Of a stretch of DNA of 64,000 nucleotides, positions 1,107 to 60,570 are shown in pieces. The stretch comes from a virus (taxonomy: Duplodnaviria; Heunggongvirae; Uroviricota; Caudoviricetes): IMG/VR virus record IMGVR_UViG_2703718819_000006; one strand, given 5' to 3'. Position 1 is the first letter of the stretch. Each line of letters opens with the position of its first letter. The notes below the pieces were generated by a model. It was given only the letters and a program-made list of their open reading frames with translations, did no database searches and was not told the origin of the DNA. A program made the translations under genes and the position numbers.

Positions 1107-2237
1107 TCACACCGCCACTGGAACCTTGATCCACGGTAGAGGGGCATAGCCAAGAATAAGAATCTCGTCCCATTTGAAATCATCCAGCTCAGACCATTCA
1201 TTAGGGAATATAACGACCGGATCTGAATGCTCTGGAGCCTGTCGTTGCATTAGCTCACACACACCTTCCATGTGGTTGTTGTACAAATGCACGTCAAAGC
1301 CAAAATGCACAAATGCACCGGCCATGTGACCCGTAATCTTCGCGAGAAAATGAGTGAGAATGCCATAGCCAGCAATATTGAATGGCATACCAACAAAAGT
1401 GTCTACGCTACGCTGTACGAGGCAGGAGTTGAGGATGCGTTTGGGGATTCCAAGTTCATCCAGTTCAGTTTCAGTAACACTGCCGTCCATCTCCAGATCG
1501 TATAGCATCTTGGTGTAGATAGACTCATAACCGAGGCGACTGTGTTGAAGACCAATGTCAGTTGCCATCGTTAAACGGGTTTCAAAATCCAGTTCACGAC
1601 TCCACAAAGAGAAGACAAAGTGGCAAGGTGGCAGTTTCATATCCTCAAGCTCGCCTACGTTCCATGCGTTAAGCATGATGCGACGATCGGTAGGGTTCGT
1701 GCGCAGTGTATCGACAATACGCTGTAGCTGATCGATTTCACGGGACAGCACTACGCGATCTTCACTGATACCCAGGTATCCCTCGACTTTGTACCCGCGT
1801 TCACGGAAAGTAGCGATCTTGCTCAGATATTCACTATGGCTCACGATGCGGGTATCTTCCCATCGACGCCACTGCTTACCGTAAACCGGCCCCAAATCGC
1901 CATTCTCATCGGCCCATGCATCCCAAATCTTAACGCCGTTATCCTTGAGAAATTGGATGTTGCCCGTGCCTTTCAGATACCACTCAAGTTCGACAAGCAG
2001 TGGCTTAAGATTTACCGCCTTTCCAGAAATAAGCGGCACAGTCCCACCAGTAAGCATGTAGTAAGAGGGAACGTAGCAGGTGCTTAAAGTACCAGTGCCT
2101 GTGCGATCATCAGCCTGCACGCCGCTTTTAAGCACCGTCTCAATAACTTTTGCATACGATGCGTTTGTTACCTGACCGTTCGTATGCTCACGATTCAAAA
2201 GGAGTGACACAAAAACCTCACAAAGATAAGTAACCAC
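1107..2237 (-). CDS. thyA: thymidylate synthase (with two insertions relative to E. coli ThyA)
   Basis: DDRTGTGT, GPVYGKQWR, RRIMLNAWN, LPPCHFVF (catalytic Cys) and DVHLYNNH motifs. The longest ORF starts with GTG at 2237; a GTG at 2210 with a GAGG Shine-Dalgarno is an alternative start. Confidence 0.9.
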   Translation of the reverse strand: MVTYLCEVFVSLLLNREHTNGQVTNASYAKVIETVLKSGVQADDRTGTGTLSTCYVPSYYMLTGGTVPLISGKAVNLKPLLVELEWYLKGTGNIQFLKDNGVKIWDAWADENGDLGPVYGKQWRRWEDTRIVSHSEYLSKIATFRERGYKVEGYLGISEDRVVLSREIDQLQRIVDTLRTNPTDRRIMLNAWNVGELEDMKLPPCHFVFSLWSRELDFETRLTMATDIGLQHSRLGYESIYTKMLYDLEMDGSVTETELDELGIPKRILNSCLVQRSVDTFVGMPFNIAGYGILTHFLAKITGHMAGAFVHFGFDVHLYNNHMEGVCELMQRQAPEHSDPVVIFPNEWSELDDFKWDEILILGYAPLPWIKVPVAV

Positions 2238-2242
2238 TTATT
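2225..2242. promoter_or_regulatory. copy of recurrent GATAAGTA...TACTTATC palindrome
   Basis: GATAAGTAACCACTTATT at the thyA 5' end; one of about 17 similar intergenic copies. Confidence 0.3.
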
Positions 2243-2285
2243 CATTAAGTGAGTTTACATTTATTGAGGGAACAAGGCCAGATAG

Positions 2286-2312: not shown

Positions 2313-2381
2313 AAAAACGAATAGTTGTTTCAGAAATTTAACGCGCCAGCGCAATATACACAGATAGATAACTACCTACAA

Positions 2382-4496: not shown

Positions 4497-4517
4497 GCGT
4501 TTAAACAAGTTGTTATC
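4497..4517. promoter_or_regulatory. AACAAnTTGTT palindrome upstream of nrdB
   Basis: Minus-strand GATAACAACTTGTTTAAAC about 30 nt upstream of the nrdB ATG; similar sites at 18315-18332, 44135-44151, 47067-47084. Confidence 0.3.
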
Positions 4518-6893: not shown

Positions 6894-6966
6894 GTATCAC
6901 CAAATAAAGAGGGCCACTAAATATAGTGGCTCATGTTAATAGATAAGCACTTACCTATCAATGAAA

Positions 6967-11510: not shown

Positions 11511-11764
11511 GTGTTTTTCCTTTGTGGTTATTTTGATACAAATTTTAAGAGCAATGAGAAGGTAAACAACTATGCATAACGGTATGTTAGGAATGAAACG
11601 AGCGCATTAATATACAAAATTTATAAGTAAGTATATACCTATTTGTTGTGACGCAACTTTGCTTGTCTGTATGACTAAAAATAAGACAGGATCACTGTAG
11701 AACGCTATGAGAGCTATTTTGAGGGGGCGTAGATTCTATCTACGCCAATATACGATCTGGAGGG

Positions 11765-15420: not shown

Positions 15421-15459
15421 GATAGGTAGATACTAACTTATATAAATTTTACTGTAAAC

Positions 15460-18299: not shown

Positions 18300-18350
18300 A
18301 ATTAACTTAACCTTTTAACAAATTGTTTTCTTGTGTGTGATAATAACGAG

Positions 18351-19458: not shown

Positions 19459-19487
19459 ATGATAAGTAAGTACTTATATATTTTCAA
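19459..19487 (-). promoter_or_regulatory. candidate sigma70-type promoter overlapping a GATAAGTA...TACTTATC palindrome
   Basis: On the minus strand: TTGAAA, 17-nt spacer, TATCAT, about 30 nt upstream of the AGGAAAA Shine-Dalgarno and ATG of gene 19229..19429. Confidence 0.35.
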
Positions 19488-19491
19488 GAAA

Positions 19492-19517
19492 TAAAAAAGG
19501 CGTCCTGTGGACGCCTT
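19492..19517 (-). terminator. rho-independent terminator after recA-like gene
   Basis: Stem AGGCGTCC/GGACGCCT with TGTG loop, followed on the minus strand by TTTTTTATTT. Confidence 0.65.
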
Positions 19518-19521
19518 GTGT

Positions 19522-21861
19522 TTACTCTTCTACTGACTCGGTGGGATTGTCTTTTGATCTCCGGTCGTCGATTGCCTGTAAAGCCGCAATGATTTCAGCT
19601 AGTGGCTTCTCCCGATACATCTCGACGATCTGTGATTTGGTGTATTTCTTGTCACCAATTTCTACTCGACCGCTGGCGTTCTTTGGCAGGTATCCTTCTT
19701 CCAGCATGTACTCGACGAGCGACTCGATAACGTCGAGGCCACGAGTAGGATCGAAGTAGAATTTCCAGGTGCATTTGCCATACGGTGGTGCAACTTTGTT
19801 TTTGATGCACTCTGCGCCTACGTCCTGGCCGATCTTCTCTTTCCCATCCTTCATCACCGATGCACCGAGACGGATGCGCACAGAAGCGTAAAACTTCGGT
19901 GAATCGCCGCCTGGAGACGTAGTAGGGTCGCCAAACATTACACCGATTTTTGTGCGAACCTGATTCAAGAAGATGATGCAGGCGTTGTATTTGCGTGCCC
20001 ACAAAGCCAGAGTAGGGAAGTTCGCACTCGTCGCACGAGCCAGCGCCGTATTGTCGTTCATGTTTAGCTGATCTTTGTCTTTGGCAGTGCCTTCAGCCAT
20101 CTTTTCGAACTTCTCGGCTTTGGAGTTCGGAACCATAGACGCAAGTGAGTCAGCCACGATACAGATAGGTGCTGATTCAGGAATAAGCTCTTCATCACGT
20201 ACCAATTTAAGAATTGTGCCGATCAACTCTACAGAGTCTTCGAAGGTATCAGGCTGCTTGTATACCCACTGACCGTCATCCTCATCTGCATTCAAACCAT
20301 TGGCTACAGCCAGGCCAACGTCAAAACTGTTTTCATGATCGAGGAATACCGCCAGACCATCTTGTTTTTGAGCGGAGATCATCGCTGCTGTTGCAAGGAA
20401 TGTGTTGTGGCTGATAATCCCGTTAGACCAGAAAGAGTGTGTTTCCGGCATCGCTACGTCGAACGTTGGTGCTTCACCTTCCTCAATAGCCACGACTTCG
20501 TCGTAGAACAAGTTAGAGCCAATTACCGCTGCCAGTTGTGCAAACAGATGCTCGTTAAAACGATTCTTTCTGCCAATGAAGGAGACATAGATTTCTCGCA
20601 GTTTGTCTATTCCGACACGATCGCCGCGGCCAATAACGTGGTCTACCAGAGCGTAGTCTTCACGGGTGGTCTTGGTGAGCGACTCGTAGAGTGATTTCAC
20701 TAAGCCGCTGATGTGCGGAACATAGCCTGAGTAAGTGCGGTCAAAACCAATGTCCCGTTTGGTTGCCACTGATAAACGTGCCGGAGATTCGAAACCAATC
20801 GTTGACAGAAAAAGGTCGTAATTAGAGCCACTGAATGACAGCCGGTAATATGTATTTTCATAACCCGCGACGTGTTTTTCAGAGATAGTTGACGTAATCC
20901 CCAGATTCAGGAGCATGAGGCGAATTTGCTGTAGCAGCAGCCCACTCGCGCTCACAACCTCAATGCAGCGACCATCATTGACGTGGCATTCCAGCTCAAA
21001 GTAGCCGCGAAGGAATGCAATTTGAGCCTCGCTATTGGCGCGACGCACACTCAACGGAACCTGCTTGCCAGCAGCTTTCTCATACTCCAGACCATATTCT
21101 TTAAAAAGCAGCGAACGCACCTCTTTGCTAAACAGCACATGGTCTTCCGAGCCGTTATGTTTTCTCGTAACTGGCATCTTGTCTGATACCAGCGAAATGA
21201 GGCGGTAGTACTCATCCTTGATGAAAGGATCTGTGTTAGAAAAATTCACTGAATTTTCAGAGGCCACGTATCCGTCAGCAATTAAATAGCCCATCAGTTT
21301 TGCGATATTGGCATCCAGGTGCTGATCGCCGAATTGATGTGTGCCAACCATTGAAGGAATCGTGTCGCCTACACTGATTTTTTCAGCATGTCGCCAGACG
21401 ACATTACCTAAGTCGTCAACCACACGGATTGGGTGACGGAACGTAGCCTCGATATAACCGCCTGATGCCAGCTTAATACGCTTGAATTTGCGACGGTTGT
21501 TCCATGTCAGGTGTGAGGTCTTCTCTATCACGCCATTTTCATTGATGAGTCCAACGTTATGCTCTACATCGCGAGTAGTGCATGTCGCTTTGTACCCTTC
21601 AATCTCAAACAACTCTTTCACTGTTACCATTCCACGCTCCGTCAGCAGCATGGTGTCTGCGGTAACACATTTCCCCGCGCTTGGAGGACCGAATACTTCT
21701 ACGATACGACCACATGGGAAACCGCCATCGTAACGACCGGAAATAGCTTTGTTTAACGGAGGAAAGCCTGTGTCAATCCAATGAGTTACTTTCTGAATTT
21801 CGTCGTTGCTACCGATTTTCTTTTTCAGAGCAAGTGCCAGTGCGGATTTTCCTTTTGCCAT
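19522..21861 (-). CDS. recA: RecA/UvsX-family recombinase interrupted by an intein
   Basis: 779 aa. Exteins (about 357 aa) carry GRIVEVFGPPSAGK|T and IIFLNQVRTKIGVMFGDPTTSPGGDSPKFYASVRIRL, closely paralleling E. coli RecA as recalled. Confidence 0.85.
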   Translation of the reverse strand: MAKGKSALALALKKKIGSNDEIQKVTHWIDTGFPPLNKAISGRYDGGFPCGRIVEVFGPPSAGKCVTADTMLLTERGMVTVKELFEIEGYKATCTTRDVEHNVGLINENGVIEKTSHLTWNNRRKFKRIKLASGGYIEATFRHPIRVVDDLGNVVWRHAEKISVGDTIPSMVGTHQFGDQHLDANIAKLMGYLIADGYVASENSVNFSNTDPFIKDEYYRLISLVSDKMPVTRKHNGSEDHVLFSKEVRSLLFKEYGLEYEKAAGKQVPLSVRRANSEAQIAFLRGYFELECHVNDGRCIEVVSASGLLLQQIRLMLLNLGITSTISEKHVAGYENTYYRLSFSGSNYDLFLSTIGFESPARLSVATKRDIGFDRTYSGYVPHISGLVKSLYESLTKTTREDYALVDHVIGRGDRVGIDKLREIYVSFIGRKNRFNEHLFAQLAAVIGSNLFYDEVVAIEEGEAPTFDVAMPETHSFWSNGIISHNTFLATAAMISAQKQDGLAVFLDHENSFDVGLAVANGLNADEDDGQWVYKQPDTFEDSVELIGTILKLVRDEELIPESAPICIVADSLASMVPNSKAEKFEKMAEGTAKDKDQLNMNDNTALARATSANFPTLALWARKYNACIIFLNQVRTKIGVMFGDPTTSPGGDSPKFYASVRIRLGASVMKDGKEKIGQDVGAECIKNKVAPPYGKCTWKFYFDPTRGLDVIESLVEYMLEEGYLPKNASGRVEIGDKKYTKSQIVEMYREKPLAEIIAALQAIDDRRSKDNPTESVEE
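20404..21669 (-). mobile_element. intein (about 422 aa) with LAGLIDADG homing-endonuclease domain, inserted in the RecA P-loop
   Basis: Starts with Cys right after GPPSAGK (CVTADTMLL...) and ends ...GIISHN followed by Thr (the extein T of GKT); internal LMGYLIADGY and FLRGYFELEC motifs. Confidence 0.75.
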
Positions 21862-24163: not shown

Positions 24164-24280
24164 GTGTTTCTCCTTGTTGTGATTTGGCCGATGGCGCTAT
24201 GCGCGTTGGGCTTTCGTTCATTCGTGGCTCTTTCGAGCTGTTAAATGATAGATCAGTGCTTACTTATTATCTATCAAAAA

Positions 24281-27800: not shown

Positions 27801-28356
27801 ATGGGGTAGGGTGCGGATAAACCACACTATAGAAGTTGTCTTTTCCACCCGCTGTAATCAGTGAGCTTATGATTTTTGCAAAATCGTTGCGTTGGAACAC
27901 GCTACCGATGTCGGAAGTGAGCAGGATGATGTTGCCTTTGGCATATGTAGAAACCAACTGTTCGAGCGAGAGACGCGGTACAAAGTAGAACTGTTCTCGT
28001 GTGTTGGCCACCGTCATTAGTTCGCAGATGTCGCGATATCCTTGCTCATTTTTAATTAGAGCGGTAAACGAGTAGTTACGTCCTCGCTCTAATGATTCCA
28101 TACATCCCTTAGACTCTTTAGCAATTTTAGCCCGGTACTCGTATGTGGGATCATCAACGATATTTAGTTTCACACCACAAATAACCGCCATGTCGTCACC
28201 AGCGGCACGTTGTAGTGGAATAACGCTCGCAATATTCATGCTATCTGCTGAAATTACAGCGGTGTAGCCAGCTTCTCTGGCAATCTTCACCGCGTTTTCT
28301 GCTTTTAGAGCCGACTCCCCAAGTGAGAAGTCAGTTCGAACCATCAGTGCCTTCAT
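24838..28356 (-). CDS. dnaE: DNA polymerase III alpha-like replicative polymerase (DnaE family)
   Basis: 1172 aa; core motif [27 protein letters not shown] matches DnaE (GPGRGSGAGSLVAY...) as recalled; N-terminal PHP-like region appears to lack the usual His cluster. Confidence 0.9.
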   Translation of the reverse strand: [1172 protein letters not shown]

Positions 28357-28534
28357 GTGTTTTTACCTTTCTGGTTTTTTTGATTTTGTCATTGGGGAAG
28401 CCTACGAACTTCCCATGCATCGAAATCGCAACTTCTTTTGCTGATTGGTGACAATCGGGCTTGTCTGGACACACCAGACAAGCCTTACCAGTTTCAGAAG
28501 CAGCGATAAGAGAGCCGAAACATCCTTTACGCAC
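28331..28534 (-). CDS. possible small Cys-rich (zinc-ribbon-like) protein
   Basis: 67-aa ORF with CLVCPDKPDCH; overlaps the polymerase start by 26 nt. Confidence 0.25.
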   Translation of the reverse strand: MRKGCFGSLIAASETGKACLVCPDKPDCHQSAKEVAISMHGKFVGFPNDKIKKTRKVKTHEGTDGSN

Positions 28535-29772: not shown

Positions 29773-29867
29773 GCGTTTTTCCTTTGTTTTCTAATGAGCG
29801 TTCAACTTCTTATATAAATATATCATTAACTATCGTAAGTGGTTACTTATCATTAAGGCTGTTTTAT

Positions 29868-31976: not shown

Positions 31977-32074
31977 GGCTAATCCTTTGTTATGAAAACA
32001 AATTATTTACTAGTGTGTTTAATGTAGCACTGCGCGAACAGGGAACTAAGCCATTCGCGCAGGGAGAAGAGGGG

Positions 32075-32287: not shown

Positions 32288-32538
32288 TCAATCAATCCAT
32301 TCTAACTTATACTATGGTAAGGAATACTACTAAAATTTATATCAATACTGAATACATTCATATCATATGCAAGTTAATTTTCTTACCTGTTTTGGGCTAA
32401 TTTTTCTCCGTGCAATGGCCTTTAACCGGTCTTTTAAGTGCCTATCGAAAAAAATGATAATAGCTTTACAACCCTAACCTTTGATGTAATATCGGTAAGC
32501 ACTTACCAGAGAGAATTGAACGCGCAAAGGTTGTAACC

Positions 32539-32925
32539 ATGTCTGATAACAAGATTGAATTTATAGAAAGTCGCTATGCTGCTTTTATCGCAGGGCTGAT
32601 TGAATCCTCACCTATGAGTCAGGCCCAAATAGCCAGACTTATTGGTTATAAAAATGCCAACAACCTTTCTTTAATTAAAAGTGGCAAAATTCCTTTGCCT
32701 ATCGATAAGGTTCGTCCGTTGGCGCTGGCGCTGGGTATTGAGCCAAGTCGTCTTATGATGATGGTGCTGGAAGAACGCCAACCTGAACTCGCAGCATTTT
32801 TATACAAAGAAGGCACCGCTCCTCTTAACGAGGACGAAAAACAGGTTCTTGCTGCATATAACGAGCGATTCGGTAAAGAGAAAGGCGCATCACAAAAGGT
32901 TGTTGAGGCTATAAAGTCTCTATGA
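32539..32925 (+). CDS. XRE-family helix-turn-helix transcriptional regulator
   Basis: 128-aa plus-strand ORF; MSQAQIARLIGYKNANNLSLIKSGK resembles an HTH_XRE helix-turn-helix. Confidence 0.6.
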   Translation: MSDNKIEFIESRYAAFIAGLIESSPMSQAQIARLIGYKNANNLSLIKSGKIPLPIDKVRPLALALGIEPSRLMMMVLEERQPELAAFLYKEGTAPLNEDEKQVLAAYNERFGKEKGASQKVVEAIKSL

Positions 32926-36238: not shown

Positions 36239-36325
36239 TGGCGGAGAGTAATGGAATCGAACCATCATCGCTTGCGCAATGGGACGGTTTTCAAGACCGC
36301 TTGAGCACCATGCTCCCTACTCTCC
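36239..36325 (-). tRNA. tRNA-Ser (anticodon UGA), type II with long variable arm
   Basis: Hand-folded: acceptor GGAGAGT/ACTCTCC, anticodon loop CTTGAAA, T-arm GATGG-TTCGATT-CCATT, encoded CCA. Confidence 0.75.
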
Positions 36326-45970: not shown

Positions 45971-46008
45971 TGCATTGGCGCAATGTACGCGCCAATGCAT
46001 AATTTTTA
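45971..46008 (+). terminator. rho-independent terminator between convergent GIY-YIG and par genes
   Basis: 11-bp stem TGCATTGGCGC/GCGCCAATGCA with 7-nt loop, followed by TAATTTTT. Confidence 0.6.
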
Positions 46009-46365
46009 ACCTTTCTTCATCAACTCTCGTTTGATTTCATCGGTACGCATCGTGACATCGGCAGCGGTGATCGCCTCATTCAATTTCACGATGTCCTCGA
46101 TTTCCTGCGGTGACTTCTCTGCCAGATGGAAAATGGCTGCTCGAATCACGTCAGAACGAGTGAACTTCTCGAAGCGAGGGATGAACTTCATCATCTCCAG
46201 CAGTTCGAAGTATTCGTCCTCCAGTGACATTGTGCGGCTTTTAATTTTCTCTTTGCCACGAGTCGGGCGTCCCTGTGGTCTGACTGGTTGGCGCAAAGGA
46301 GTTGTGTTCTTAGCCGGTGCATCAGGCTCTTTGCGCTTTGCTAGGTCACCCATTTTCATGGACAT
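46006..46365 (-). CDS. small partition/centromere-binding protein (ParG/ParB-like)
   Basis: 119-aa ORF immediately downstream of and overlapping parA; basic Pro/Arg-rich N-terminus. Confidence 0.4.
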   Translation of the reverse strand: MSMKMGDLAKRKEPDAPAKNTTPLRQPVRPQGRPTRGKEKIKSRTMSLEDEYFELLEMMKFIPRFEKFTRSDVIRAAIFHLAEKSPQEIEDIVKLNEAITAADVTMRTDEIKRELMKKG

Positions 46366-47033
46366 TATTCTTCTTCCTCCAGACTCAACAGATAATCTAC
46401 AAATTCTTCAAACTCGGCTTCCGCCTTTTTGTCGCGCTCGCTACCGGTCATTTCAAAGATAGAACGACCAGACTCTTCCGCATCATCATAGACGTTGCGG
46501 TTATATAGATTGACTGGCGCAGACTCGATTCCAAACGTCTCAACAATCTCTTTAGCCGCCAGAATGCGAGACACTTGTGATGGCAAAGCCGGGCACTGGT
46601 TCATGACCGCGCGGACCTTCACTTTATCGTTTACATTGCGAACATTGTCGATAATAGGATCGATGTCACGTAAAGATTTCAAATCACGACGCTTAGGACG
46701 CAGCGGGATAATGATAACGTCAGCCATCAGCATCGCTTGTCGCTGAATTTCGGAGTCGAAGCCACCAGCATCTACCACTACAAACTCAGCTCTACCCTGA
46801 AGCGATTTTAGGTGCTTAATGATGTCATCCTGAACGTATGCAAAAGGAATCAGCTCAAGGTCTTCGTTCTGTCGACGGTCTTCACACCAGCTCGTTGTCG
46901 TGCGCTGAATATCTATATCGGTAATATAAACCTTCTTCTTCTTTTTGACTTTCAGGCAAACGGCAATTTGCTGGGCAACGGTGGATTTGCCAGGCCCGCC
47001 CTTTGTGCCGCCAACCACAAAGATCTTGGTCAT
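46365..47033 (-). CDS. parA: ParA-family partition ATPase (small type Ib)
   Basis: 222 aa; deviant Walker A KIFVVGGTKGGPGKST; ParA/MinD-like VVVDAGG. Confidence 0.8.
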   Translation of the reverse strand: MTKIFVVGGTKGGPGKSTVAQQIAVCLKVKKKKKVYITDIDIQRTTTSWCEDRRQNEDLELIPFAYVQDDIIKHLKSLQGRAEFVVVDAGGFDSEIQRQAMLMADVIIIPLRPKRRDLKSLRDIDPIIDNVRNVNDKVKVRAVMNQCPALPSQVSRILAAKEIVETFGIESAPVNLYNRNVYDDAEESGRSIFEMTGSERDKKAEAEFEEFVDYLLSLEEEE

Positions 47034-47351
47034 TGGAGAGTTCCCTTTGCGTATATAATTATCGTCTGAAACAACTTGTTTTCTTATATGTGATATAGCC
47101 TAAATGCCTACGGCTGCGGTGTAAAGGTTAAATGGTAGGTTGTGATTAACAATTGGCAAACATAGCTTGTATTTGTCTGTTGAAAAAAGTAACAATGACC
47201 TCTATATTACAAGTACGGTGATATGCCGTACACAATTTGATAATGCACACGTAATGGGCTATAGCCTTTTAAAGTAATTTTTGAGTCGAAAACTCAGTTT
47301 GAACAGAGGAGATTGATGGCCTTCCTACATCACGGCCATCAGGAGGAATAC

Positions 47352-49621: not shown

Positions 49622-49737
49622 ATCGGGATGGCGGATTTATATCACATTTTACCCCTCAATTGATAGGTATGTACCTGCCTATTTATATTGCAAAACTAAT
49701 GAGGGCTTGGTTCTAAACTAATCCTCGTTGAAGTTAT

Positions 49738-53580: not shown

Positions 53581-53672
53581 GTTGAATATGCTCCTTGATT
53601 TGGTGGGCTATCCTTGCCCACCATAAAGTAAGTACCTACTTATTTTTACCGATGTAAATATTTTTTTCTACA

Positions 53673-59824: not shown

Positions 59825-60521
59825 AATGGATCACTCCGTTGGCAAAATAATTCCGACGCGCATTACAGGCGTCATAACGTTTTGTGCAGTAATCAGCACC
59901 AGACATAGACGTCTGCTGGTTATTTTTGTCGAAATATGGACCGGTATAGCCGCATTCTGGCCCTCGGTATTTCCACGGGCAGGTGTTTTTAATGATCTGA
60001 CGATACGGCAGTTGCACCCCCATCAAATCGAACACACTGGACAATTCAAACTCGACAACCTGATGAGTTTCGAGAGTTTTCTGTTCGATAAACCACATTT
60101 CATCCGGGAAATGTTGGTTTGGATCTGCTGTTGGGTTGCCGTCTTTAAAATTAACGGCATCGAGGAAGCGAGCCAGCGTCATCTTGCGAATAATGCGGCA
60201 GCCAACCAGATCGTCGTTCGCCTGAACTTCCGCAGAGACGGTTCCGGCAAAGTTCGATACCTGAATTTTTGGACGTGGCAACGTTCCCTGGCCAGTTTTG
60301 TCAAAGCCTGATGCTTTGATTGGCCACGGCTCGTATGTCACTCCTTGCCAGACGACCGGTTGCATCAGTTCGTTTGTTCCGGCGTGGAAAAACAGCTCCC
60401 CCCCTGAAGTTGTGTTCGACATATCCAGTACGAACAACTCAATGAGTGCAGAGGGAGATAAGCTCTGAATATCAGCTTTAATTCCCATTGTTTCATCCTT
60501 GAAATAAGTAGGCGCTGACAT
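59790..60521 (-). CDS. minor tail protein (lambda gpL-like)
   Basis: 243 aa; VVWQGVTYEPWPI, RFLDAVNFKDGNPTADP and C-terminal Cys cluster (CPWKYRGPECGY...C) parallel lambda L as recalled. Confidence 0.75.
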   Translation of the reverse strand: MSAPTYFKDETMGIKADIQSLSPSALIELFVLDMSNTTSGGELFFHAGTNELMQPVVWQGVTYEPWPIKASGFDKTGQGTLPRPKIQVSNFAGTVSAEVQANDDLVGCRIIRKMTLARFLDAVNFKDGNPTADPNQHFPDEMWFIEQKTLETHQVVEFELSSVFDLMGVQLPYRQIIKNTCPWKYRGPECGYTGPYFDKNNQQTSMSGADYCTKRYDACNARRNYFANGVIHFGGFIGATRYG

Positions 60522-60570
60522 CCTGTCAGCGCCACAATGATAGTAAATTAGTACCTACTTATCCAGATAC

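Follow-up and report, generated by a model that had tools for sequence, protein, structure and literature searches.

The 64,000-nt stretch of DNA analyzed here (IMG/VR record IMGVR_UViG_2703718819_000006, referred to below as the window) is part of a phage-plasmid of the SSU5/pHCM2 type, and a 20-bp palindrome recurs in the gaps between its genes. The window is 97% identical to Escherichia phage PhiR41_1, 95 to 98% identical to Cyrano (pLF82) and CMS-2020a, 82% identical to Salmonella phage SSU5, and ~79% identical to Klebsiella phage-plasmids. Nearly all of its genes lie on the minus strand, and synteny with Cyrano gives the order tail, lysis, partition, replication, and integrase/XRE module, followed by dnaE, recombination, repA, sbcCD, and nrd/thyX. 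At one copy of the palindrome, the repeat covers the spacer together with 3 nt (the first three) of the -10 hexamer of a TTGAAA-17-TATCAT promoter (19459-19487, minus strand), and a terminator hairpin (19499-19515) lies just upstream in the minus-strand sense. We compared the window with Cyrano, SSU5 (NC_018843), Klebsiella oxytoca plasmid pCAV1015-111, and Acinetobacter plasmid p5759_1. A related-locus search with the family helicase returned only relatives of at least 92% identity, and the distant relatives were taken from the plasmid collection.

A sequence-only reading of the window had described about 17 copies of an inverted repeat made of GATA(A/G)GTA half-sites with a spacer of 3 to 6 nt. 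The half-site GATARGTA does occur 15 times on the two strands, against 2.2 expected, and none of 100 shuffles reached 15. The strict form GATARGTA-N3-6-TACYTATC, however, has a single match, at 37964, so that description was too narrow. Pairs of ATARGT and ACYTAT are spaced almost only by 4 and 8 nt because AAGT recurs every 4 bp, and the motif is therefore better described as a 20-bp palindrome with a TA step every 4 bp, ATARGTARGTACYTACYTAT, whose halves are ATARGTARGT and ACYTACYTAT. This model matches the window eight times at 2 mismatches, three times at 3, and four times at 4 (two of these four being overlapping registers of one site), whereas Markov shuffles give 0, 0.07, and 0.17, respectively. 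The strong sites, with no more than 4 mismatches, number 13 against ~0.2 expected. Three or four copies are weaker (2360, 29831, the core-only 32491, and the atypical 45031), and the palindrome occupies ~15 gaps between lytic genes. Thus, the dispersed repeat is real, strongly nonrandom, and, as described below, deeply conserved, but two members of the earlier list do not belong to it: 24726 is a lone half-site, and 45037 has a 1-nt spacer and lies within a larger AT-rich inverted repeat (45018-45074).

All 13 strong sites are intergenic in a window that is 13.7% intergenic (binomial P = 6e-12), which bears out the intergenic placement proposed earlier. Their distance to the next start codon runs from 1 to ~112 nt, not mostly from 20 to 90 bp as had been stated. 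The information profile is nearly symmetric over the 20 bp and is flanked by AT-rich sequence; in enteric genomes, the best-conserved part is the outer ATA/TAT rather than the core. The natural reading of such a profile is a symmetric DNA site of the kind that a dimeric protein would bind.

The palindrome is retained across the family. At up to 4 mismatches, Cyrano has ~22 copies and SSU5 has ~24. These occupy orthologous gaps, both between the terminase genes and ~85 kb and ahead of the ParB-like gene. In these relatives, one copy falls within the portal gene, at its 3' end, and there takes up the spacer of TTGAAA-17-TATGAT. In alignments of orthologous spacers, the palindrome stands out as a conserved island amid diverged sequence, and so does the terminator that follows it upstream of nrdA. 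At the same threshold, ~24 copies are found in the K. oxytoca plasmid (helicase identity, 68%); these take the form ATAAGTAAG-nnn-TTACTTAT, with variable central positions (ATAAGTAA-N4-TTACTTAT). The Acinetobacter plasmid, with a helicase of 37% identity, has ~30 copies of a shorter motif, AWTAT-TAGTAAGCGCTTACTA, and the core common to the enteric and Acinetobacter motifs is GTAAG-NN-CTTAC. Only the flanks give a site its direction (AWTAT upstream in Acinetobacter, CAT downstream in SSU5), the enteric 20 bp being symmetric; in SSU5, the downstream flank prefers TAT-CAT, with A at position 22 in 15 of 26 sites versus 9 of 26 in the mirrored flank. A scan of IMG/VR with the exact consensus found 41 stretches, mostly contigs of 37 to 112 kb along with a few short fragments, and our literature searches found no paper describing the 20-bp palindrome.

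Next, we considered how the sites lie with respect to promoters. A large subset of the sites has a -35-like hexamer (TTGAAA, TTGATA, TTGATG, or TAGATA) next to or overlapping the left arm, together with a -10-like hexamer whose first base is at palindrome position 18 (TATCAT) or 21 (TAACAT, TATTAT), at a spacing of 17 bp. The copy at 19462 is therefore not the only one to overlap a sigma-70 promoter, as had been thought, since those at 6939, 24248, 60543, and 15422 do so as well. Other copies are followed ~8 nt downstream by an extended -10-like element (TGTnAGAAT or TGTATAAGAT) that is kept in relatives. Overall, the -10-like hexamer begins at position 18 or 21 in ~40% of the sites and elsewhere in the rest, with starts at positions 7, 18, 21, or 29 to 35, and a good -35 hexamer is present at several sites and absent at many. 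The genes behind the sites include those for lysis and tail together with thyX, nrdA, sbcD, the single-stranded DNA-binding protein (SSB) gene, and the primase/ligase region.

Expression in the plasmid-prophage state is informative in this regard. In RNA-seq of LF82(Cyrano) lysogens, genes flanked by the motif are at background (PMC9928086), and so, in the supplementary table, are CYRAN_56/57 and 4/5, the genes behind near-consensus promoters (PMC9928086). Transcript levels of the XRE gene, CYRAN_45, exceed background ~10x, and those of the ParB-like gene, CYRAN_119, do not rise above the detection floor (PMC9928086). Promoters that should be self-sufficient but are silent, with the palindrome in their spacer, argue for repression. 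The variable geometry of the sites, taken together with the self-sufficient promoters, suits an operator rather than an activator site. The sequence-only reading had left the choice between an operator and a phage-specific promoter element; the operator is the better supported of the two, and the promoter element is the less likely reading, given that sites stand at variable positions relative to the -10 hexamer and the start codon; some copies abut the Shine-Dalgarno (SD) sequence or the ATG.

From the motif itself, its placement, its conservation, its overlap with promoters, and the silence of the genes behind it, we infer, with slightly more confidence than doubt, that the palindromes are operators of one element-encoded global prophage repressor that keeps lytic promoters off while the element persists as a plasmid-prophage. 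The protein on each palindrome would be a DNA-binding repressor, dimeric or possibly tetrameric, with its gene on the phage-plasmid. The palindromes lie in or beside the sigma-70 promoters that stand at the head of most of the lytic units (nucleotide metabolism, replication, recombination, lysis, and tail) and, in complete relatives, of the head-gene units also. Bound repressor would block RNA polymerase and thereby hold ~20 units off during replication in the plasmid form, and the same core over the start region of the repressor's own gene would allow negative autoregulation. Candidate operators are many and dispersed, with 13 strong sites in the window and ~22 to 24 per complete genome, many of them within -35/-10 spacers. 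The set would most likely represent a known kind of system, the operators of a global prophage repressor, that had not been defined in this phage-plasmid family.

The most likely candidate for the binder is an XRE-type helix-turn-helix (HTH) protein whose gene adjoins that of the integrase (Table 1). It has a weak match to Pfam HTH_19 and falls in a PHROG labeled "transcriptional regulator," and its Cyrano counterpart is annotated as a putative master repressor (PMC9928086). The protein is found in 961 PLSDB plasmids, compared with 930 for the helicase, with a nearly equal distribution over host genera, and among the PLSDB records listed its gene is always beside the integrase gene. In an alignment of the XRE proteins, 7 of the 14 invariant residues fall in the HTH region, residues 28 to 49, which read GYKNANNLSLIKSG in both the window protein and pHCM2 and carry 2 to 4 substitutions in two Klebsiella proteins. 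The recognition helix hardly varies (NANNLSLIKSG in the enteric set, NQNMVSFIVRG in that of Acinetobacter) at overall identities down to 31%, a pattern that parallels the conserved core of the motif. In the predicted promoter of the XRE gene, TTTACA-16-TAATAT (32465-32507, plus strand), the core GGTAAGCACTTACC begins 1 nt after the -10 hexamer; the core GTAAGYACTTAC is found behind the predicted -10 not only in the window but also in pHCM2 and a K. pneumoniae plasmid, with diverged flanks. As the only recognizable sequence-specific regulator that is both expressed in lysogens and present in plasmids throughout the family, the XRE protein is a reasonable candidate.

Pfam and PHROG scans of ~25 small open reading frames (ORFs) in the window gave no further DNA-binding candidates, and PDB sequence searches with the XRE protein and with an 88-aa protein discussed below returned nothing useful. 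We set aside the ParB-like proteins as the lysogenic silencer, since they are not expressed in lysogens and have a ParB_N domain only. CYRAN_114, annotated as a "transcriptional regulator," was also rejected, being FljA-like (Pfam Flag1_repress, weakly Hfq-like) and absent from the Acinetobacter relative. A phage sigma factor was considered as well. The Acinetobacter plasmid has, in its early operon after a MoxR-like gene, a 221-aa protein annotated as belonging to the sigma-70 family (L132:17690-18355), with a Pfam Sigma70_r2 match (E = 0.0026) below the cutoff; no enteric counterpart was found, and a palindrome is an unlikely sigma target. The 67-aa ORF at 28331-28534 (minus strand), between a MoxR-like gene and dnaE, is not that counterpart, since its match is to PHROG 3616 (N-terminal part), to which a neighboring Acinetobacter protein, and not the sigma factor, belongs. 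A full-length, 226-aa member of PHROG 3616 lies at the equivalent position in the Acinetobacter relative.

Several observations weigh against a global repressor, or against the XRE protein in that role. Several copies abut the SD/ATG or precede terminators, so that they do not simply overlap the promoter of the next gene. In the lysogen RNA-seq data, signal rises over some site-bearing junctions (for example, CYRAN 55 to 56, +3.6 log2; 59 to 60, +3.9) and falls over others (for example, 34 to 35, -2.4; 64 to 65, -2.4), and this data set does not map promoters. Of the two flanks in the Acinetobacter relative, the upstream one (AWTAT) is much better kept than the downstream one, which a purely symmetric operator does not explain. 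The immunity region has one core-type site only, and that site is without the outer ATAA/TTAT, which is strongly conserved elsewhere; a protein other than XRE could thus be the one that binds the dispersed sites. SSU5 keeps the sites without the XRE or integrase module, so a repressor of this kind requires the assumption that SSU5, which was isolated as a free phage, is an immunity-deletion (virulent) derivative. Finally, the XRE protein has no S24 peptidase domain, and the reported SOS induction of Cyrano would therefore need an antirepressor.

An unlikely, but not negligible, alternative is an activator-dependent promoter element resembling the late promoters of P1, at which a phage activator made upon induction would bind the palindrome in place of a -35 contact and turn on every unit that bears the motif. 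The -22 box of P1 LPhot, AAGTTACTT (L135:522-545), lies upstream of the -10 and resembles the center of the motif, AAGTACTT, with one central base different; many copies lack a good -35; and the asymmetry of the SSU5 downstream flank would fit an activator. A candidate for that role, and the alternative binder, is an 88-aa winged-helix-like protein encoded just upstream of terS, outside the window, in complete relatives; it is conserved in all four lineages, has an lpa-like place ahead of the terminase genes, and would be consistent with an activator of the Lpa kind. However, tblastn with P1 Lpa gave nothing significant in the relatives (best E = 0.22, in nonconserved ORFs), and the distance from the site to the -10-like hexamer varies. 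Several promoters with near-consensus hexamers or an extended -10 should fire unaided but are silent in the lysogen, early-type genes (nrd, thyX, the helicase region, and SSB) follow the sites rather than late genes only, and the core also lies over the promoter of the repressor gene itself. A different kind of element, an RNA hairpin acting in processing, stability, antitermination, or as a translational operator near the SD, seems very improbable. Many copies do lie 1 to 45 nt from the SD/ATG or just before terminator hairpins, and positions 4 and 17 covary (A:T 35, G:C 15, A:C 16, G:T 6), but only two of eight tested copies fold better than shuffles, the others reaching 0 to -4 kcal/mol. 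Positions 5 and 16 show no compensation (A:U in 0 of 76, versus 14 A:C and 15 G:T), so it is sequence identity that is conserved and not pairing. A search of the window with Rfam 15 at the gathering threshold gave three tRNA matches only and none over motif copies.

The resemblance of the motif to SlmA-binding sequences (SBSs) raises the question of whether the host nucleoid-occlusion factor SlmA (TetR family) uses the sites, as a silencer titrated upon replication of the element or to couple the element to control of the division site, which we consider improbable. The Escherichia coli SBS is GTGAGTACTCAC, in which position 3 accepts any purine (G to A, Kd of ~60 nM) and position 6 accepts any pyrimidine (PMC3020112), and the inner 12-mer consensus of the motif, GTAAGTACTTAC, obeys this rule. 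The 24-mer SBScons oligonucleotide, AAGTAAGTGAGCGCTCACTTACGT (PMC4423959), includes a 20-bp palindrome, GTAAGTGAGCGCTCACTTAC, that shares 14 of 20 positions with the motif ATAAGTAAGTACTTACTTAT; both have the same RTRAG-repeat architecture with a 4-bp offset, and SlmA binds as a dimer of dimers. With up to one mismatch, the 12-bp SBS core GTRAGYRCTYAC occurs 6 times in the window versus 1.8 expected (one exact copy and five with one mismatch, versus 0.05 and 1.75) and 14 to 17 times per complete enteric genome versus ~2 to 3. We found no SlmA homolog encoded by the element, so any SlmA involved would be the host's. Acinetobacter, however, has no SlmA ortholog (PMC7481262, PMC13060281), and despite this the Acinetobacter relative has 11 exact SBS-rule cores, compared with 0 to 3 in enteric genomes. 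Because the best SBS-like cores are found in a host without SlmA, the conserved binder is most likely encoded by the element, and cross-binding by SlmA in enteric hosts is possible. In the window, the 12-mer rule is obeyed exactly by one copy only (32495), and the most conserved positions are the outer ATA/TAT rather than the SBS core. Chromosomal SBSs are sparse, with ~50 copies in 4.6 Mb, and lie outside promoter regions (PMC3020112), whereas the motif is strictly intergenic. The two are nearly identical in sequence, with inner-core differences at positions that SlmA tolerates, and differ in distribution and in the persistence of the motif in a host genus without SlmA. We give a similarly low probability to the palindromes being functional SlmA sites in enteric bacteria, with SlmA serving as a copy-number-sensitive silencer or acting against septation over plasmid or phage DNA. 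If this were so, ~5 copies of the element in a cell, each with ~20 sites, would take up more SlmA than the reported content of the cell, and an element-encoded protein of the same specificity would serve in SlmA-less hosts. The resemblance is a lead to possible cross talk with host cell division. Dispersed partition or condensation sites, like the scattered centromere repeats of N15, are in our estimate still more improbable. The window has a type Ib-like ParA (46365-47033) with a 119-aa partner (46006-46365), which could be the binder, as could the ParB-N-domain proteins of the family, two of which are kept in all lineages, with a motif copy directly upstream of the first. In lysogens, though, signal from the ParB-like CYRAN_119 is at the detection floor, no homolog of the ParA partner could be detected in the Acinetobacter relative, and ~20 sites placed precisely at gene junctions and promoter spacers are not what a centromere needs.

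We then compared the favored arrangement, operators of a single global repressor, with known systems. It resembles P1 C1 immunity in that a phage-plasmid would use one repressor at many dispersed operators on sigma-70 promoters, including that of the repressor's own gene; in the P1 record, the operators Olpa and Oc1a-e are 17 bp and annotated as overlapping promoters. However, P1 C1 operators are asymmetric, whereas the site here is a 20-bp palindrome, and tblastn of C1 against the Cyrano, SSU5, K. oxytoca, and Acinetobacter plasmids found no match below E = 1. P1 also controls its late genes indirectly, via Lpa, whereas here one motif precedes both early-type and structural genes. The P1 Lpa late promoters share with the present sites a conserved inverted repeat just upstream of the -10 at many phage-plasmid promoters, but the present palindrome spans 20 bp, lies at shorter and varying distances from the -10, and precedes more than the late genes; there is also no Lpa homolog. 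The stoperators of cluster A mycobacteriophages (L5 gp71) are reportedly tens of repressor sites in intergenic gaps along co-oriented genes. They are similar in number, in their location in short gaps, and in that many lie off promoters, and a stoperator-like role could possibly explain the copies that abut the SD/ATG or lie before terminators. Stoperators, in contrast, are asymmetric, 13 bp long, in one orientation, and bound by a monomer, whereas the motif here is palindromic. The cI/XRE-type operators of 434 and P22 c2 are also short palindromes with AAG-N-CTT-type half-sites (that of 434 is ACAAG-N4-CTTGT), bound by an HTH dimer and subject to autoregulation, but these repressors have 2 to 6 operators in one immunity region, compared with ~20 sites genome-wide here. 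The arrangement thus works like P1 C1 immunity but belongs to neither the P1 nor the stoperator family, because the homology tests for C1 and Lpa failed and the site is symmetric.

Phage-plasmids of the SSU5/pHCM2 type are common in clinical Escherichia, Klebsiella, Enterobacter, Salmonella, and Acinetobacter, and some carry resistance genes; the PLSDB records with the family helicase and those with the XRE repressor number >900 each. Their lysis-lysogeny control is essentially undescribed. An operator and a candidate repressor would offer a handle on the silencing of ~20 lytic units, with uses in predicting immunity groups, in curing or inducing these plasmids, and in annotating promoters across the family.

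A second intergenic palindrome, AAACAAnTTGTTT, is present in five copies in the window versus 0.46 expected (Table 1) and in ~18 to 20 copies per complete enteric genome. It lies ~13 nt downstream of a TGnGATAAT-like extended -10 and just upstream of the SD, and none of its five gaps contains the first motif. The Acinetobacter relative has neither this second motif nor the FljA-like CYRAN_114. The family thus seems to have two regulons that jointly cover most intergenic gaps.

Table 1. Palindrome copies and candidate binder gene in the window (plus-strand numbering; a copy of the first motif is named by the start of its 20-mer)
Feature	Position	Strand	Remarks
Motif copy	2222-2245	-	Registers 2222 and 2226; 11 nt upstream of thyX GTG; SD directly after palindrome
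Weak copy	2360-2379	-	5 mismatches; between mazG end and terminator 2296-2312; absent from earlier list
Motif copy	6939-6958	-	Within TTGATA-17-TAACAT (6933-6961); upstream of nrdA
Motif copy	11623-11642	-	Upstream of sbcD
Motif copy	15422-15441	-	1 nt upstream of ATG of 59-aa ORF; overlaps TTTACA-17-TAGTAT (15430-15458)
Motif copy	19462-19481	-	ATATATAAGTACTTACTTAT in gene orientation; promoter given in text
Motif copy	24248-24267	-	Within TAGATA-17-TATCAT (24245-24273); upstream of gp32-like SSB gene
Weak copy	29831-29850	-	Core GTAAGTGGTTAC; between CobT-like and CobS/MoxR-like genes
Core-only copy	32491-32510	+	GGTAAGCACTTACC at 32494-32507; XRE repressor gene promoter region
XRE-type HTH protein gene	32539-32925	+	128 aa; candidate binder; adjoins integrase
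Motif copy	37965-37984	-	Sole exact match to earlier strict pattern; upstream of tRNA cluster; then TGTGTATAAGAT (37949-37960), extended -10-like
Motif copy	40610-40629	-	2 nt upstream of annotated ATG of 160-aa ORF
Motif copy	41480-41499	-	Then TGTGAGAAT (41466-41474), extended -10-like, kept in relatives
Motif copy	44914-44933	-	12 nt upstream of ATG; SD directly after
Motif copy	49663-49682	-	Upstream of holin/lysis genes
Motif copy	53624-53643	-	After J-like tail gene; then hairpin 53602-53622 and tail-fiber start
Motif copy	60543-60562	-	Within TGGATA-17-TATCAT (60537-60565); then hairpin 60511-60533 and minor tail protein L start
Second motif, AAACAAnTTGTTT	4503-4515		
Second motif, AAACAAnTTGTTT	18316-18328		
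Second motif, AAACAAnTTGTTT	31996-32008		
Second motif, AAACAAnTTGTTT	44137-44149		
Second motif, AAACAAnTTGTTT	47069-47081		

At the copy upstream of nrdA, the promoter is followed within 2 nt by a terminator hairpin (6913-6930; the whole arrangement spans 6913-6961, minus strand), and the predicted transcription start falls in the 5' arm of this hairpin. The terminator would therefore stop read-through from upstream but not transcripts from the site's own promoter. A site followed by a hairpin is also seen at 53602-53643 and 60511-60562. The large AT-rich inverted repeat at 45018-45074 has 17-bp arms, CCTGCTTCTGTATATAT and ATATATACGGAAGCAGG, enclosing AATAAGTAACTTATT, and lies in the divergent region between a 249-aa ORF and a plus-strand 255-aa ORF (45186-45953); at the position matching the latter, Cyrano has a different gene on the opposite strand.

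The window also has four tRNA genes at 36239-37218 (minus strand), Ser-tga, Thr-tgt, Tyr-gta, and Asn-gtt; at the matching place, the annotation of Cyrano has Asn, Thr, and Ser, and that of SSU5 has only Asn. Lastly, the RecA-like ORF at 19522-21861 (minus strand) is 779 aa long, and the SSU5 recombinase, of ~358 aa, aligns with it over only ~293 residues. This difference in length suggests an insertion in the window ORF, such as an intein or a homing element.

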